Assembly (NCBI GenBank): GCA_050015415.1
Contig: JBEKBL010000023.1
Span: 1-26,154 of the forward strand
Reading direction: 5' to 3'
Length of the DNA: 26,154 nucleotides
Origin: Solirubrobacteraceae bacterium
GTDB taxonomy: Bacteria; Actinomycetota; Thermoleophilia; Solirubrobacterales; Solirubrobacteraceae
Shown here one piece after another: positions 1 to 14,790 of the stretch. The first letter of the stretch is position 1; every line of letters begins with the position of its first letter. The notes under the pieces were generated by a model that searched no databases, was not told where the DNA came from, and saw nothing but the letters and a program-made list of their open reading frames with translations. The translations under genes were made by a program, and so were the position numbers.

Positions 1-1
1 C

Positions 2-562
2 TGCGCCCTGCAGGCGGCGATGCAGGGCTACCAGGTCGCGACGCTCGAGGATGTGCTCGAGACCGCCGACATCTTCGTGACCGCGACGGGCAATCTGAAC
101 ATCATCAGCGCCGAGCAGATCGGGCGGATGAAGCACCAGGCGATCGTCGGGAACATCGGCCACTTCGACAACGAGATCGACATCGCCGGGCTCGCCGCGG
201 TCCCCGGAATCCGGCGCGTCAACGTCAAGCCGCAGGTCGACGAGTGGGTCTTCCCGGACGGGCATTCGGTGATCGTTCTGTCCGAGGGTCGCCTGCTCAA
301 CCTCGGCAACGCGACCGGCCACCCGAGCTTCGTGATGTCGAACTCGTTCACCAACCAGACGATCGCCCAGATCGAGCTCTACACCAAGCGCGACTCCTAC
401 GAGAAGCGCGTCTATGTGCTGCCGAAGCTGCTCGACGAGAAGGTTGCGCGCCTGCATCTCGACGCGCTCGGCATTCACCTGACGGAGCTCCGTCCCGAGC
501 AGGCCGCCTACATCGGCGTCCCCCTCGATGGGCCCTACAAGAGCGATCACTACCGCTACTAG
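2..562 (+). CDS. ahcY: S-adenosyl-L-homocysteine hydrolase, C-terminal part (5' end lies outside the window)
   Basis: Frame is open from position 2. Motifs [39 protein letters not shown] and the canonical terminus [10 protein letters not shown]. Confidence 0.97.
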
Positions 563-1830
563 TGCCGGCCGGGCGGCGTAGCGCGCGCGCCTCTCACGAC
601 GCCGTCCTCGCGGACGCCGGTGCGGCCCGAATTGCCTGGGCCGACCGGCAGATGCCCGTGCTGCGGGCGATACGCGAGCGCTTCGAACGCAAGCGTCCGC
701 TCGCCGGCCTGCGCGTCGCCGTCTGCCTGCACATCACCGCCGAGACCGCGAACCTCGTTCGCACCCTGCTGGCGGCCGGGGCCGAGGTGGACCTGTGTGC
801 GGCCAACCCGCTCTCGACGCAGGACGACGTCGCCGCCGCACTGAGCGCGGTGCATGGCGCCGAGGTCCACGGGGAGCGCGGGGAGGACCGTGCCGCGTAC
901 GCGCGCCATATCGAGCGACTGGTTGCCGCTCGCCCGCAGATCCTCATCGACGACGGCGCCGAGCTGATCGTCACCGCGCACGCTGGTCTCGCGCCGATCG
1001 CGGCGGAGCTGATCGGTGCCACCGAGGAGACGACGACCGGCCTCGTGCGGCTACGCTCGATGGAGGCCGACGGCGCGCTTCGTTGCCCGGTCCTGGCCGT
1101 CAACGAGACGCTCACCGAGCGCGTCTTCAACGACCGTTACGGCACCGGCCAGTCGGTGATCGACGGGATCCTCCGCGCGACCGACCTGCTATTCGCAGGG
1201 CGCTCCGTGGTCGTCCTCGGCTACGGCTCGGCGGGCCGGGGTGTGGCGGCCCGCGCGAAAGGCGCGGGAGCAAACGTTGCGGTCTGTGAGGTCGACCCGG
1301 TGCGCGCGCTCGAGGCACGGATGGAGGGCTATGCCGTTTTGCACTCGCTCGCCGCGGCGGCGATCGGAGAGGTGTTCATCACCGTCACGGGTGCGCCGGG
1401 AGTCCTGCGGCGCGAGCATTTCGAGTTGATGATGGACGGCGCCGTACTCGCGAACGCCGGCCATTTTGATGTCGAGATCAGCCTCGCCGATCTCGCGGCA
1501 ATCGCCGTTTCGCCGCCGCGTGCCGTGCTGCCGTTGATCGACGAGTACGAGCTCGCGGACGGTCGTCGGCTCAACCTCGTCACACAGGGGAGGGTCGTGA
1601 ACCTCGCGGCGGCTGCCGGCCACCCTGCGGCGGTGATGGACATGTCGTTCGCGGCGCAGGCCCTCGCCGTCGCCCACCTGGCGCGCCAGGAAGCCCGGGT
1701 CGGTCCCGGTGTGCGCCTGCCGCCATTCGCGCTCGACCACGAGGTGGCACGGCTCAAGCTTGCCTCGCTCGGCATCGAGATCGACGTTCTCAGCGACGCG
1801 CAGGAGCGCTATCTGCGCTCGTTTCGCTGA
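562..1830 (+). CDS. Second, short-type adenosylhomocysteinase-like protein (422 aa) with a substituted catalytic motif
   Basis: GTG at 562 overlaps the TAG of ahcY (TAGTG). AhcY motifs IAWADRQMPVL, CLHITAETA, ANPLSTQDD, IDDG, EETTTG, GYGSAG, NAGHFD, GRVVNLAAAAGHP. The TKxxFDNxYG motif reads TERVFNDRYG. The ORF-track start at 244 lies inside ahcY and is not credible. Confidence 0.9.
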   Translation: MPAGRRSARASHDAVLADAGAARIAWADRQMPVLRAIRERFERKRPLAGLRVAVCLHITAETANLVRTLLAAGAEVDLCAANPLSTQDDVAAALSAVHGAEVHGERGEDRAAYARHIERLVAARPQILIDDGAELIVTAHAGLAPIAAELIGATEETTTGLVRLRSMEADGALRCPVLAVNETLTERVFNDRYGTGQSVIDGILRATDLLFAGRSVVVLGYGSAGRGVAARAKGAGANVAVCEVDPVRALEARMEGYAVLHSLAAAAIGEVFITVTGAPGVLRREHFELMMDGAVLANAGHFDVEISLADLAAIAVSPPRAVLPLIDEYELADGRRLNLVTQGRVVNLAAAAGHPAAVMDMSFAAQALAVAHLARQEARVGPGVRLPPFALDHEVARLKLASLGIEIDVLSDAQERYLRSFR

Positions 1831-1898
1831 GCATGCGAGACCTCGCGCCGCGCGAGCCGCAATCGCGATCACGATTGGCGTGAGGCGGCACCAGCCGC

Positions 1899-1907
1899 TG
1901 GTACGCT
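1899..1907 (+). promoter_or_regulatory. Extended -10 box (TGG-TACGCT) of a probably leaderless secA promoter
   Basis: TACGCT at 1902-1907, preceded by TGn and 7 nt upstream of ATG 1915; no SD in between. Confidence 0.55.
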
Positions 1908-1914
1908 GAACTCA

Positions 1915-4794
<2,880 letters not shown>

Positions 4795-5911
4795 ATGGCC
4801 AGCGCTCCGAGCGAGGAACCGACTCCCGCACGGCTCGCCGCGATACGCGACCAGCTCAAGCTGCTCGCGGACTATCTTTGACCCAGCTTCGCTGAGCGAG
4901 CGCGTCGCAGCGCTCGAAGCGCAGATGGGCGAGCCAGGCTTCTGGGACGACCAGACTCTTGCCGCGAAGGTTGGCGCCGAACACGCGCGTGCGCAGCGCC
5001 GCTTAGACCTATTCAAGGCCGTCGAGTCAGAGGTTGAGGATCTAGAGACGCTGTTCGAGCTCTCTGCCGATGATGCGGAGCTGGCCGGCGAGCTCGACGC
5101 CGCGATCGCGTCGGTCGAGGCTCGGCTGGCGTCGCTCGAGGAGGAGCGCCTGTTCTCCGGTCGCTACGACGCCGGTGACGCGCTCGTCACGATCAACGCG
5201 GGTGCCGGCGGGACTGACGCCCAGGACTGGGCCGAGATGGTGCTGCGGATGGAGATGCGATGGGCCGAAAGGCGCGGATTTGAGACCGAGCTGCTCGAGC
5301 TGAGCCCGGGCGAGGAGGCGGGCATCAAGTCGGCGACGTTCCGCGCGTCGGGTGAGAACGCCTACGGGCTGTATGGCGCCGAGAAGGGAGTTCATCGCCT
5401 TGTCAGGCTGTCGCCGTTCGATTCGGCCCATCGTCGCCAGACGAGCTTCGCGGGACTCGAGGTCGCGCCCGTCGTCGAGGATGAGGCCGCGATCGAGATC
5501 AACGACGATGATCTGCAGGTCGACACCTACCGCGCCAGCGGGGCCGGCGGGCAGCATGTCAACAAGACCGACTCAGCCGTGCGGATAACCCATCGCCCGA
5601 GCGGGATCGTCGTCCAGTGCCAGAACGAACGCTCGCAGACGCAGAATCGCCAGACGGCGATGGGGATGCTGCGTGCGAAGCTCGCCGAGCGCGAGGAGCG
5701 GGCCCGTCAGGAGGAGATCGCACGCGAGAAGGGGGAGGCGCAGGACGTCAACTTCGGCTCCCAGATCCGCTCATACGTGCTGCATCCTTACTCGCTCGTC
5801 AAGGATCACCGGACGAACTACGAGGTGGGCGACGTACAACGCGTCCTCGACGGCGATCTTGACGCCTTCGTCAGGGCCTACCTGCTCGGCGGGCCGGGGG
5901 AAAGTGGCTGA
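4795..5911 (+). CDS. prfB: Peptide chain release factor 2 (~371 aa), decoded via a +1 programmed frameshift
   Basis: ATG 4795 follows the secA stop directly. 28 codons run to CTT TGA (4876-4881); the +1 frame from 4880 has GGTDAQDWAEM, GVHRLVRLSPF (SPF anticodon motif), GAGGQHVNKTDSAVR (GGQ) and FGSQIRSYVLHPY. Confidence 0.97.
4867..4882 (+). other. RF2 autoregulatory +1 frameshift site TAT CTT TGA C
   Basis: GCG GAC TAT CTT TGA C matches the conserved prfB slippery site and weak stop context. The internal SD is only GGA. Confidence 0.92.
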
Positions 5912-6761
5912 CGTCACGTTCCCGGCGGGGATGACTGAGCTCGTGGGGCGCGCCGTCGCCGAGGATCTGGGCTCGGGCGACGTCACCAGCGAGGCCACGG
6001 TAGCTGCTGCTGCGCGCGCTCGTGCGGCGATCATCCAGAAGCAGGCCGGCGTGATCTACGGACTCGATGCCGCGGCGCTCGCGTTCGAGCTCCTGGATCC
6101 CGGGGCCGTTGTCGAGCGGATCGCGGTGGAAGGGGCGTGGCGCGAACCGGGTGGGGAGGTGCTGCGCATCGAGGGGCTGGCGCGGGCGCTGTTGGCGGCG
6201 GAGCGGACGGCGCTGAACTTCCTGGCGCACCTGTCGGGGATCGCGACGTTCGCGGCGCGCTGCGTGCGTGAGGTGGCGGGCACCGGGGCGCAGGTCCTCG
6301 ACACGCGCAAGACGACCCCCGGTCTTAGGGCGCTCGAGAAGGCCGCTGTCGCGGCTGGAGGGGCCACGAACCACCGCGTCGGGCTCTACGACGCGGTTCT
6401 GATCAAGGAAAACCACGCCGCGGCGGCGGGTGGAATCGCGGCGGCCGTCGCCGCGGCGCGTTCTGGTGCGCCGGGCCTCCCGCTCGAAGTCGAGGTTCGC
6501 GACGCGGATGAGATCGCGCAAGCGCTCGAGGCGGGGGCCGAGCGGCTGCTGCTCGACAACATGAGCATCGGCGAGCTGCGCGCCGCGGTGGCGCAGGTCG
6601 CTGGACGGGCCAGCCTCGAGGCGAGCGGCGGCGTGACGCTCGAGACGCTCCGAGCGGTTGCCGAGACGGGCGTACAATTCATATCGGTGGGCGCCCTGAC
6701 GCATTCCGCGCCGGCGCTCGACCTCTCGATGATTCTCCAGCCGCTGAACGGGCTCCAATGA
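5904..6761 (+). CDS. nadC: Nicotinate-nucleotide pyrophosphorylase (quinolinate phosphoribosyltransferase)
   Basis: [71 protein letters not shown] 5904 follows a G-rich SD and overlaps the end of prfB. Confidence 0.96.
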
Positions 6762-7765
6762 TGAACCTCCCGATGGCGATGGCCCTCCCGCCCCCGCTCG
6801 AGCCCGGCGAGATCGCCGAGCTGCAGGATGAGGTGCGCGATCTCGCGCGGGCCCGCGACGCCGTGATCCTCGCGCACAACTACCAGCTGCCCGAGGTCCA
6901 GGACGTCGCCGACCTGGTCGGTGACTCGCTCGCGCTCTCGCAACAGGCCGCGCGGACGGCGGCGACGACGATCGCGTTCTGCGGCGTCCATTTCATGGCC
7001 GAGACGGCGGCGATCCTCTCGCCGGAGAAGACGGTCCTGATCCCCGACCTCGACGCCGGCTGCTCGCTCGCCGAGTCGATCACAGCCGCACAGCTCGCCG
7101 CATGGAAGGCGGAGCATCCAGGAGCGATCGTCGTGATGTACGTCAACACCTCAGCCGAGGTCAAGGCCCTGAGCGACTACTGCTGTACCTCCTCGAACGC
7201 CGTCGGAGTTGTGCGCCAGATCCTCGCCGAGCACGGCGCGGACACCGAGATCCTGTTCGGCCCCGACCTGTTCCTCGGCACCTACGTCGAACGCGTCATC
7301 GGTCGCTCGCTGCGGATCTGGGATGGGGAATGCCACGTCCACGCAGGCATTCGTCCGGCCGATATCACGGCGAGCAGGGCTGCGCACCCGGATGCCGAGT
7401 TCCTGATCCATCCCGAATGCGGCTGCGCGACCAGCGCCATGGAGTACGTCGCCGCCGGCGACATCGCCAGCGATGGCGTTCACATGCTTTCGACCTCGGG
7501 CATGCTCCGCTACGCCGTGGACGCGCAGCCAGGCTCCAGCGCGATCGTCGCGACTGAGGTCGGCATGCTCTACCCCCTGCGGCAGGCCGCGCCGGAGGTC
7601 GAGTTCATCGCTGCCAACGCCGAGGCCAGCTGCCGCTACATGAAGATGATCACGCTGCCGAAGCTGCGCGACGCACTGCGCGACGGCGTCCACGAGGTGC
7701 AAGTACCGGACGCCACCGCCGACGCCGCGCGACTTGCGATCGAGCGCATGGTCGCGATCAGCTGA
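6758..7765 (+). CDS. nadA: Quinolinate synthase
   Basis: [18 protein letters not shown], [4Fe-4S] Cys motifs AGCSLA, ECHVH, CRYMK, plus HPEC. ATGA overlap with nadC. Confidence 0.97.
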
Positions 7766-14426: not shown

Positions 14427-14790
14427 GGGGACGACAGGCTTCGACGCGGTCGGCTCGTGGGAGTGGTTGCGAGTCGAGGTCCCGGGCGGCCTCGTAAAAC
14501 ACCCGGGAAAACCATACGTGCGGACTCTCACGAGTACGCCCTCGCCGTCTAGCTAAAACTAGAGCGATGAGGTCTCGGCCCCCGCAGCCTGCGGCGGGGA
14601 TCACCGGGATCAGATAGCAGGCTCACCCGGGGCGGCCCGCCTGCGCCAATCCGGGGAAACACCAGCAGGCTGGTCCCCCGCAACCCCGCCGGCGAGGCGA
14701 GCGGAGGACGAGATCAGAGCGCCGGCTACGCTCGTAGATGCCACTTTCACGCGATCGCGGACGTGGGTTCGATTCCCACCGTCTCCACTA
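14427..14790 (+). ncRNA. ssrA: tmRNA (one-piece)
   Basis: 5' GGGGACG pairs with 3' CGTCTCC, giving a G3-U Ala identity pair and discriminator A14787. T-arm GTGGG-TTCGATT-CCCAC. Pseudoknot pk1: CGAGG 14475-79/CCTCG 14490-94 and CCCGGG 14481-86/14502-07. Tag ORF in the expected position. Confidence 0.97.
14520..14552 (+). other. tmRNA tag reading frame: (A)ADSHEYALAV-stop
   Basis: GCG GAC TCT CAC GAG TAC GCC CTC GCC GTC TAG after pk1 and ATACGT; the stop sits in a TCTAG/CTAGA helix. Confidence 0.88.

Follow-up and report, generated by a model that had tools for sequence, protein, structure and literature searches.

The stretch of DNA analysed here (the window) comprises 26,154 nucleotides from a Solirubrobacteraceae bacterium (GenBank assembly GCA_050015415.1, contig JBEKBL010000023.1, here contig C23). 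The source is a metagenome-assembled genome (MAG) of 340 contigs, 74% complete, and its closest relatives are Solirubrobacteraceae MAGs from peat and soil. The gene of interest lies near the start of the window, directly behind the canonical long-type ahcY for S-adenosylhomocysteine (SAH) hydrolase (SAHH). It encodes a second, short-type AhcY in which the catalytic Lys, Asp and Asn of the family are replaced by Glu, Asn and Asp; this form is termed E..ND below and the usual form K..DN. The features at the locus were as follows.

2-562, + strand: 3' part of the canonical long-type ahcY (last 186 codons and TAG), with Pfam AdoHcyase and AdoHcyase_NAD matches and a tail ending in KSDHYRY.
560-564, + strand: TAGTG stop/start overlap, with the ahcY stop TAG at 560-562 and the paralogue start GTG at 562-564, read directly.
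562-1830, + strand: short-type AhcY paralogue (P0001) of 422 aa, E..ND subfamily, characterised by profiles, alignment, an AlphaFold2 (AF2) model and the ratio of nonsynonymous to synonymous substitution rates (dN/dS).
730-744, + strand: CLHIT; H57-I-T59-A-E61 (H57 at 730-732) is the HxTxE adenine-type substrate signature, kept in the alignment.
949-954, + strand: D130-D131 of IDDG; D131 (952-954) corresponds to catalytic Asp131 of human SAHH and is kept in at least 98% of 151 members.
1024-1041, + strand: EETTTG (E155-G160), contacting ribose and nicotinamide adenine dinucleotide (NAD), kept in the alignment; ESQASG in a sister lineage.
1114-1140, + strand: rewired catalytic segment T185-E186-R187-V188-F189-N190-D191-R192-Y193, codons read directly.
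1117-1119, 1129-1131 and 1132-1134, + strand: E186, N190 and D191, codons read directly.
1219-1242, + strand: GYGSAGRG dinucleotide-binding loop of the NAD site, at least 98% conserved; E243 (VCEVD) at 1288-1290.
1462-1467, + strand: H301-F302 of GHFD (H301 at 1462-1464), the 'molecular gate' and a contact to the 5'-position, kept by conservation.
1621-1623, + strand: H354 of GHP, equivalent to human H353, kept by conservation.

The overlap, the six motifs (CLHIT, IDDG, EETTTG, GxGxxG, GHFD and GHP) and the codons starting at 1117 (Glu), 1129 (Asn) and 1132 (Asp) had been described in an earlier reading of the letters alone (the sequence-only reading), and all were correct. The paralogue frame runs from GTG 562-564 to TGA 1828-1830. 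No alternative ATG, GTG or TTG start was present between 562 and residue 13, where the alignment to solved SAHHs begins; the ~12 residues before the conserved core had low confidence in the AF2 model. The 5' part of the upstream gene was located on another contig of this assembly, at the end of C13, and contains TKSKFDNLYGC together with the ~40-aa insertion of the long type, so that the gene is a canonical ahcY, as had been supposed. The assembly breaks inside this gene. The two contig ends overlap (window 1-90 against L004 2360-2448) with two amino-acid differences, FITATGNV against FVTATGNL, which suggests strain heterogeneity in the source sample. The ahcY/paralogue junction was read in the window and in related loci, where it was again TAGTG (L005, L006, L007), TGATG (L010) or a spacer of 1 nt (L013) or 4 nt (L015). 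No promoter-like or terminator-like sites were found in window 1-2100.

The paralogue scored 530.1 bits against NF004005 (cut-off 275) and 519.5 bits against TIGR00936 (cut-off 497.6) and matched both PF05221 and PF00670, as expected for a member of the SAHH fold. Identity to the solved short-type enzymes of Pyrococcus furiosus (7R37) and Synechocystis (7O5L) was 50-51%, or 48-51% with that of Sulfolobus (7R39) included. With these enzymes it shares fold and length, the absence of the ~40-aa insertion and of the long C-terminal tail, and the HxTxE, D131, EETTTG, GxGxxG, GHFD and GHP features. The AF2 model had a pLDDT of 94.5 and superposed on closed nucleoside-bound SAHH structures with TM scores of 0.92-0.93 and a root-mean-square deviation of 1.5 Å. 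Structures of the animal SAHH-like proteins AHCYL (3GVP and 3MTG) were distant matches. The substrate pocket contains the equivalents of human His55, Asp131, Glu156, His301 and His353 as well as the HxTxE signature, which denotes an adenine-type ligand (PMC10978960). The residues predicted to form the NAD site (GxGxxG, E243, T157/T159 and N347) are all present and at least 98% conserved.

The catalytic segment itself is altered. In canonical SAHH, Lys186 accepts the ribose 3'-OH proton and NAD+ the hydride, with Asp190 one helical turn away (K186, D190 and N191 in human numbering), and members of the family require the Lys/Asp pair. Takata et al. (2002) reportedly mutated K185, D189 and N190 of rat SAHH. 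Oxidation of the ribose 3'-OH by bound NAD+ is the first step of SAH hydrolysis (PMC10978960), and in the SAHH-family dehydratase AgmF both K184A and D188A abolish activity (PMC8599513). Short-type SAHHs read T-K-[HY]-x-F-D-N, with T-K-H-x-F-D-N-R-Y as the canonical segment, whereas the paralogue subfamily reads T-E-R-x-F-N-D. In the alignment to 7R37, T-E-R-V-F-N-D-R-Y-G of the paralogue stands opposite M-K-Y-L-F-D-N-R-Y-G, so that E, N and D face K, D and N: Glu186 occupies the place of the catalytic Lys, and Asp190/Asn191 of FDN are swapped to Asn190/Asp191. The segment opens helix 184-207 of the AF2 model, which makes E186/N190 and R187/D191 i/i+4 pairs on adjacent faces. From this helix-face geometry, derived from the secondary structure of the model, we infer that the ribose-facing K186/D190 pair has become Glu186/Asn190 and that the charged pair would have shifted to the next helix face as Arg187/Asp191.

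Homologues were searched for in a collection of 5.8 billion proteins and the 120 nearest (70-92% identity) were examined. All 120 carried E-R-x-F-N-D. Each of the 36 genomic loci in the clade likewise had E..ND, and so had every Solirubrobacterales, Paraconexibacter or Thermoleophilaceae locus recovered. Relatives down to ~61% identity all carried E..ND and none carried K..FDN, so the close relatives did not contradict the sequence-only reading. All carriers seen were MAGs. In a maximum-likelihood tree the E..ND proteins formed a single clade (SH-like approximate likelihood-ratio test 99), which held when the motif and EETTTG columns were removed; the clade has a single origin. Pairwise dN/dS of the paralogue was 0.08-0.25. 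For the canonical ahcY next to it these pairs of genomes gave a similar range, 0.02-0.21, with a paralogue dN ~1.5-2 times that of the canonical gene.

Conservation was further assessed in a subfamily set of 151 members with sampled pairwise identities of 61-98%. Conserved in at least 98% of members were H57, T59, E61, D130, D131, E155, E156, T157, T159, the glycines of GxGxxG (G220, G222, G225, G227), the whole ER.FNDRYGTGQS block, E243, N298, H301, F302, N347, H354 and M359; the x positions 58 and 60 of HxTxE were variable. Overall, 36% of positions reached this level. When 34 E..ND sequences were compared with 97 K..DN short types, the only fixed differences were K186E, H187R, D190N, N191D and V161L. 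E186, R187, N190 and D191 were 100% conserved in the clade, and no position conserved in the K..DN proteins was variable in the E..ND proteins. The three coordinated changes that had been pointed out are therefore real, and the count was one short, the fourth change being H187R. The nearest Lys-bearing relatives of the clade already have Arg187, so H187R is older than K186E, D190N and N191D. E..ND is the fixed, selected state of the whole subfamily and, with all 120 homologues and 36 loci in agreement and dN/dS ~0.1, not the product of random decay, as the sequence-only reading had argued.

A strict DNA-level pattern for E-R-x-F-N-D-x-Y-G-T-G-Q was also tried and matched 12 of 28 genomes of the window's own family, but this patchy presence was an artefact of too strict a pattern. 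Four of the pattern-negative genomes do have the tandem copy, reading ER.LND..H or ER.FNDHH in three and TARLLDA in one.

Upstream of the long ahcY lies a MerR-family gene of 124 aa without Cys, and the order merR, long ahcY, short copy was found in all clade loci with enough flank. Directly before merR, in 53 loci, stands a 26-bp palindrome with fixed spacing, AACCTTGACAC-N4-GTGGTAAGGTT, which ends 4-20 nt before the merR start codon. A weight matrix was built from these sites and scanned over the own genome, where it located exactly two operators, at merR-ahcY and at metH.

About 1033-1060 of L004 (G000:C13): operator before merR, weight matrix.
1070-1444 of L004 (G000:C13): merR, 124 aa.
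3516-3543 of L086 (G000:C22): operator ~30 nt upstream of metH (B12-dependent methionine synthase), weight matrix.

In four more complete relatives the operator pattern was found at the ahcY operon and at metH, and in one of them also at metF; the reversed control gave 0 matches. With operators at the ahcY operon, metH and metF, the paralogue is part of a MerR-controlled methyl-cycle regulon. No operator was found in Conexibacter woesei with a strict regular expression, and no SAH riboswitch upstream of ahcY or metH. The SAH-responsive SahR regulon of Proteobacteria is reported to cover ahcY, metH and metF (PMC4239095), the same gene set as that marked by the operator here; the regulator belongs to a different family. 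No literature on a MerR regulon of ahcY and metH was found, within an incomplete coverage of the literature.

One relative carried two adjacent operator copies between metH and a sigma-factor-like open reading frame, named by eye from its translation. Perfect GC-rich hairpins around GCATGC, such as GGTGCATGCACC and GGCGCATGCGCC, were seen in groups of two or three ~20-110 nt upstream of the merR operator in L011, L014, L019, L021, L022, L033 and L036. These arrays fall between the preceding gene and the operator and resemble intergenic repeats of the REP (repetitive extragenic palindromic) type or terminators.

The gene context of short-type AhcY was then compared between sole and tandem copies. 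The canonical long ahcY stood directly upstream in every E..ND locus with enough upstream sequence, in answer to the earlier question of adjacency, and the E..ND form, unlike other short-type SAHHs, was never the sole AhcY of a genome. Short AhcY that is the sole copy keeps K..DN, as in five Gaiellales genomes without a long type, where the same regulator and operator precede the single gene, and in one genome (G045) of sister family f2 in the window's own order. The other four f2 genomes (G015, G051, G063, G093) have the long type only, and all five are without the MerR regulator and the operator. The pattern in Gaiellales and f2 indicates that the short type is the ancestral active AhcY of the class, linked to merR.

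Several states were found among the tandem short copies: KR..DN (P0305); KR..DD in Conexibacter woesei DSM 14684, a cultured organism with merR-long-short order and an 11-nt overlap; ER..ND, the largest group; TARL[LF]D[AG] with EETTTG changed to ESQASG, conserved among proteins 81-100% identical; and AASLIEN. In L066, from another actinomycete, the short copy of a tandem pair has an intact K..DN. Further non-canonical states of the short type were SR.LAN, AQ.VET and QH.FDT. On a motif-free tree of the Thermoleophilia short-type clade, at least four changes are required to explain which members have Lys186, and Lys186 has been lost independently at least four times; besides E..ND, loci were inspected for two of the lineages without Lys (TARL[LF]D[AG] and AASLIEN), both tandem. 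The triad was never lost in sole copies but often in tandem copies, whose genes stay intact. The contig of the nearest K..DN sister, P0123, has 177 nt upstream, too short to tell a tandem from a single gene. A working rule that a short copy beside a long one is always E..ND was discarded on account of P0305, Conexibacter woesei and L066.

Altered K/D/N residues were seen in many other public AhcY-like proteins (P0123-P0272), namely KEN (7 representatives), ADS, RLH, REN, KND, SDD, YTR and others, so that SAHH homologues with an altered triad are widespread beyond Thermoleophilia. The same representative set includes fusion AhcY-like proteins of 555-827 aa. Some Gaiellales genomes have an additional, more divergent AhcY-like gene outside the merR locus, 37-41% identical to the long type (G407:C3:216941-217702 and G408:C1:164835-165632).

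To our knowledge, regulatory non-catalytic SAH hydrolase paralogues are known from animals only, and no literature on bacterial SAHH paralogues without the catalytic Lys was found, within the same incomplete coverage. AHCYL1/IRBIT and AHCYL2 (dAhcyL1/L2 in Drosophila) are SAHH paralogues thought to be inactivated by point changes in the AHCY domain and kept by selection, and they suppress AHCY via heteromultimers (PMC4926864). The paralogue likewise has point changes at catalytic positions (K186E, D190N, N191D) under selection (dN/dS ~0.1), from which we infer a loss of activity, and AHCYL/IRBIT would on this likeness be its best functional analogy. It lacks the N-terminal IRBIT (Ser/Thr-rich) or P/A extension of AHCYL and is of independent origin, since it nests in the bacterial short-type AhcY of Thermoleophilia. 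AgmF, from angustmycin biosynthesis in Streptomyces, is an SAHH homologue from an actinobacterium and is without SAH hydrolase activity, as is proposed here for the paralogue; it retains Lys184 and Asp188 and belongs to a secondary-metabolite cluster, whereas the paralogue has neither residue and lies in a housekeeping methyl-cycle operon (PMC8599513).

On balance the paralogue is probably an NAD- and nucleoside-binding modulator of the methyl cycle that does not hydrolyse SAH, in the manner of animal AHCYL/IRBIT. It would be a stable, selected AhcY fold that has kept the ability to bind NAD(H) and, as its adenine nucleoside, adenosine or SAH, but in which Glu186/Asn190 on the ribose face would leave 3'-oxidation, and hence SAH hydrolysis, lost or crippled. 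The overlapping stop and start and the shared operon headed by merR imply that it would be made together with the real AhcY. Its likeliest action would be to modulate SAH hydrolase activity or to buffer or sense SAH or adenosine, possibly by joining the long AhcY in mixed oligomers, as AHCYL does with AHCY. The repeated loss of catalytic residues in tandem copies, together with the finding that E..ND is never the sole AhcY, favours a role without SAH hydrolysis, and co-translation with AhcY inside a methyl-cycle regulon favours a regulatory or buffering one. The degenerate ESQASG sister lineage suggests, from its sequence, that part of the kept function may not need the ribose and NAD contacts and so points to a role as scaffold or partner. 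Of the functions offered in the sequence-only reading, a non-hydrolytic one is thus favoured; the regulatory subunit and the NAD/adenosine sensor are not separable here, and a new enzyme is less probable but plausible.

Several points weigh against a non-hydrolytic modulator. The evidence on subfamily members consists of sequence, genome context and predicted structure. Some tandem short copies retain K..DN (P0305 and L066), so that tandem position by itself implies neither loss of activity nor E..ND. Expression evidence consists of one exact 165-nt RNA-library contig at 1752-1900, most metatranscriptome contigs on 1-1900 being 90-95% matches to canonical ahcY, a conserved gene, from other organisms, and a lone contig is too weak for a claim of co-transcription. 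The invariant E186, R187, N190 and D191, together with D131, H57 and H301, would also fit a working site with new chemistry, and a carboxylate can serve as a general base.

The last of these points leads to the alternative that survives best, an active NAD-dependent enzyme of altered chemistry or substrate, with Glu186 as general base and Asn190/Asp191 re-tuned. Its substrate would be an adenine nucleoside connected with the methyl cycle, and the change would lie in another 5'-substituent, in a reaction carried only part of the way or in a shifted equilibrium. It would explain why the substituted residues are themselves invariant and why all pocket residues outside the triad are too, those of the C4'/C5' chemistry (D131, H57 and H301) included; the HxTxE signature predicts an adenine ligand, and SAHH-fold proteins with new reactions are known, AgmF being one (PMC8599513). 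AgmF, however, retained and requires its Lys and Asp (PMC8599513). Sister tandem lineages with Ala, Ser or Gln for Lys persist, one of them also without EETTTG, which indicates a role independent of catalysis. No extra pathway genes are linked either: the operon holds merR and ahcY beside the paralogue, and the regulon adds metH and metF. An altered enzyme is accordingly judged unlikely, though with enough in its favour to be taken seriously.

A reading of wider scope, offered tentatively, is that the short AhcY of Thermoleophilia became an SAH- or adenosine-sensing pseudoenzyme whose mixed tetramers may throttle the long AhcY, or which may act as a co-factor of the MerR regulator on ahcY, metH and metF, or both. 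If this were true, IRBIT-type regulation would have its first counterpart in bacteria, and Glu186/Asn190 with Arg187/Asp191 would form a purpose-built 'bind but do not oxidise' site.

Glutamine synthetase controls the MerR-family factors TnrA and GlnR, and by analogy the paralogue might have begun as a 'trigger enzyme' and now, as the ligand sensor of the MerR regulator, bind SAH or adenosine, touch the MerR protein and so set the expression of ahcY, metH and metF. The regulator is small, at 124 aa, and without Cys; merR and its operator were always found in the operon of a short-type AhcY, directly upstream (a single K..DN gene in Gaiellales, merR-long-short here), and are missing from the four long-only f2 genomes. 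This co-occurrence may, however, reflect one ancestral operon lost once, f2 being a single lineage, and the short-only f2 genome G045 is also without the regulator. Contact between the paralogue and MerR is purely hypothetical; a complex prediction for the two gave a score of 0.00, which counts neither for nor against it. We regard a role as the ligand sensor of MerR as improbable.

That the gene encodes a redundant second SAH hydrolase isozyme tolerant of its substitutions is what the database name implies. Every source names the paralogue adenosylhomocysteinase, and its scores pass the curated thresholds of two NCBIfam 'equivalog' models of that enzyme. Whole-chain profile models, however, are blind to three residues, Ala at the matching Lys or Asp kills AgmF activity (PMC8599513), and E..ND, unlike the K..DN short forms, is never the sole AhcY; a redundant isozyme is very improbable. 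Decay of a duplicated gene, or an error of sequencing or assembly, to which the fragmented MAG and the degenerate motifs and long branches of tandem copies elsewhere might point, can be dismissed in view of an intact frame in more than 150 independent sequences, dN/dS ~0.1, at least 98% conservation at 36% of positions and identical three codon changes in samples from many studies.

Given the three altered catalytic residues and the absence of any genome in which E..ND is the only AhcY, the paralogue should not be filed as adenosylhomocysteinase, and its label as an ordinary hydrolase is probably wrong. Hundreds of 'adenosylhomocysteinase' entries from Solirubrobacterales-type genomes lack the catalytic Lys, Asp and Asn yet pass the two 'equivalog' models, and metabolic reconstructions hence count a probable non-enzyme. 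If the proposed role is correct, a bacterial family co-translated with AhcY inside a MerR regulon would provide a simple system for the study of SAH sensing and methylation potential. Within a single operon setting the lineage provides a natural gradation, from KH..DN through KR..DN, KR..DD and ER..ND to fully degenerate forms, and the KR..DD state is available in a fully sequenced organism in culture, Conexibacter woesei DSM 14684, so that the conversion of an enzyme to a pseudoenzyme is directly testable.

Further features of the window were recorded downstream. The NAD biosynthesis genes nadC and nadA (5673-7765) lie ~4 kb downstream of both NAD-dependent AhcY genes, beyond secA and prfB; no evidence for a functional link between them and the AhcY genes was found. 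CTTTGAC at window 4876-4882 stands just upstream of the main frame of prfB (release factor 2; about 4890-5911), and is the classical +1 programmed frameshift site of that gene. A full-length transfer-messenger RNA gene was located at window 14427-14790 (Rfam RF00023, 162 bits), between genes for an M50 peptidase and an ABC-2 permease and downstream of an RNase R/II (RNB) gene.

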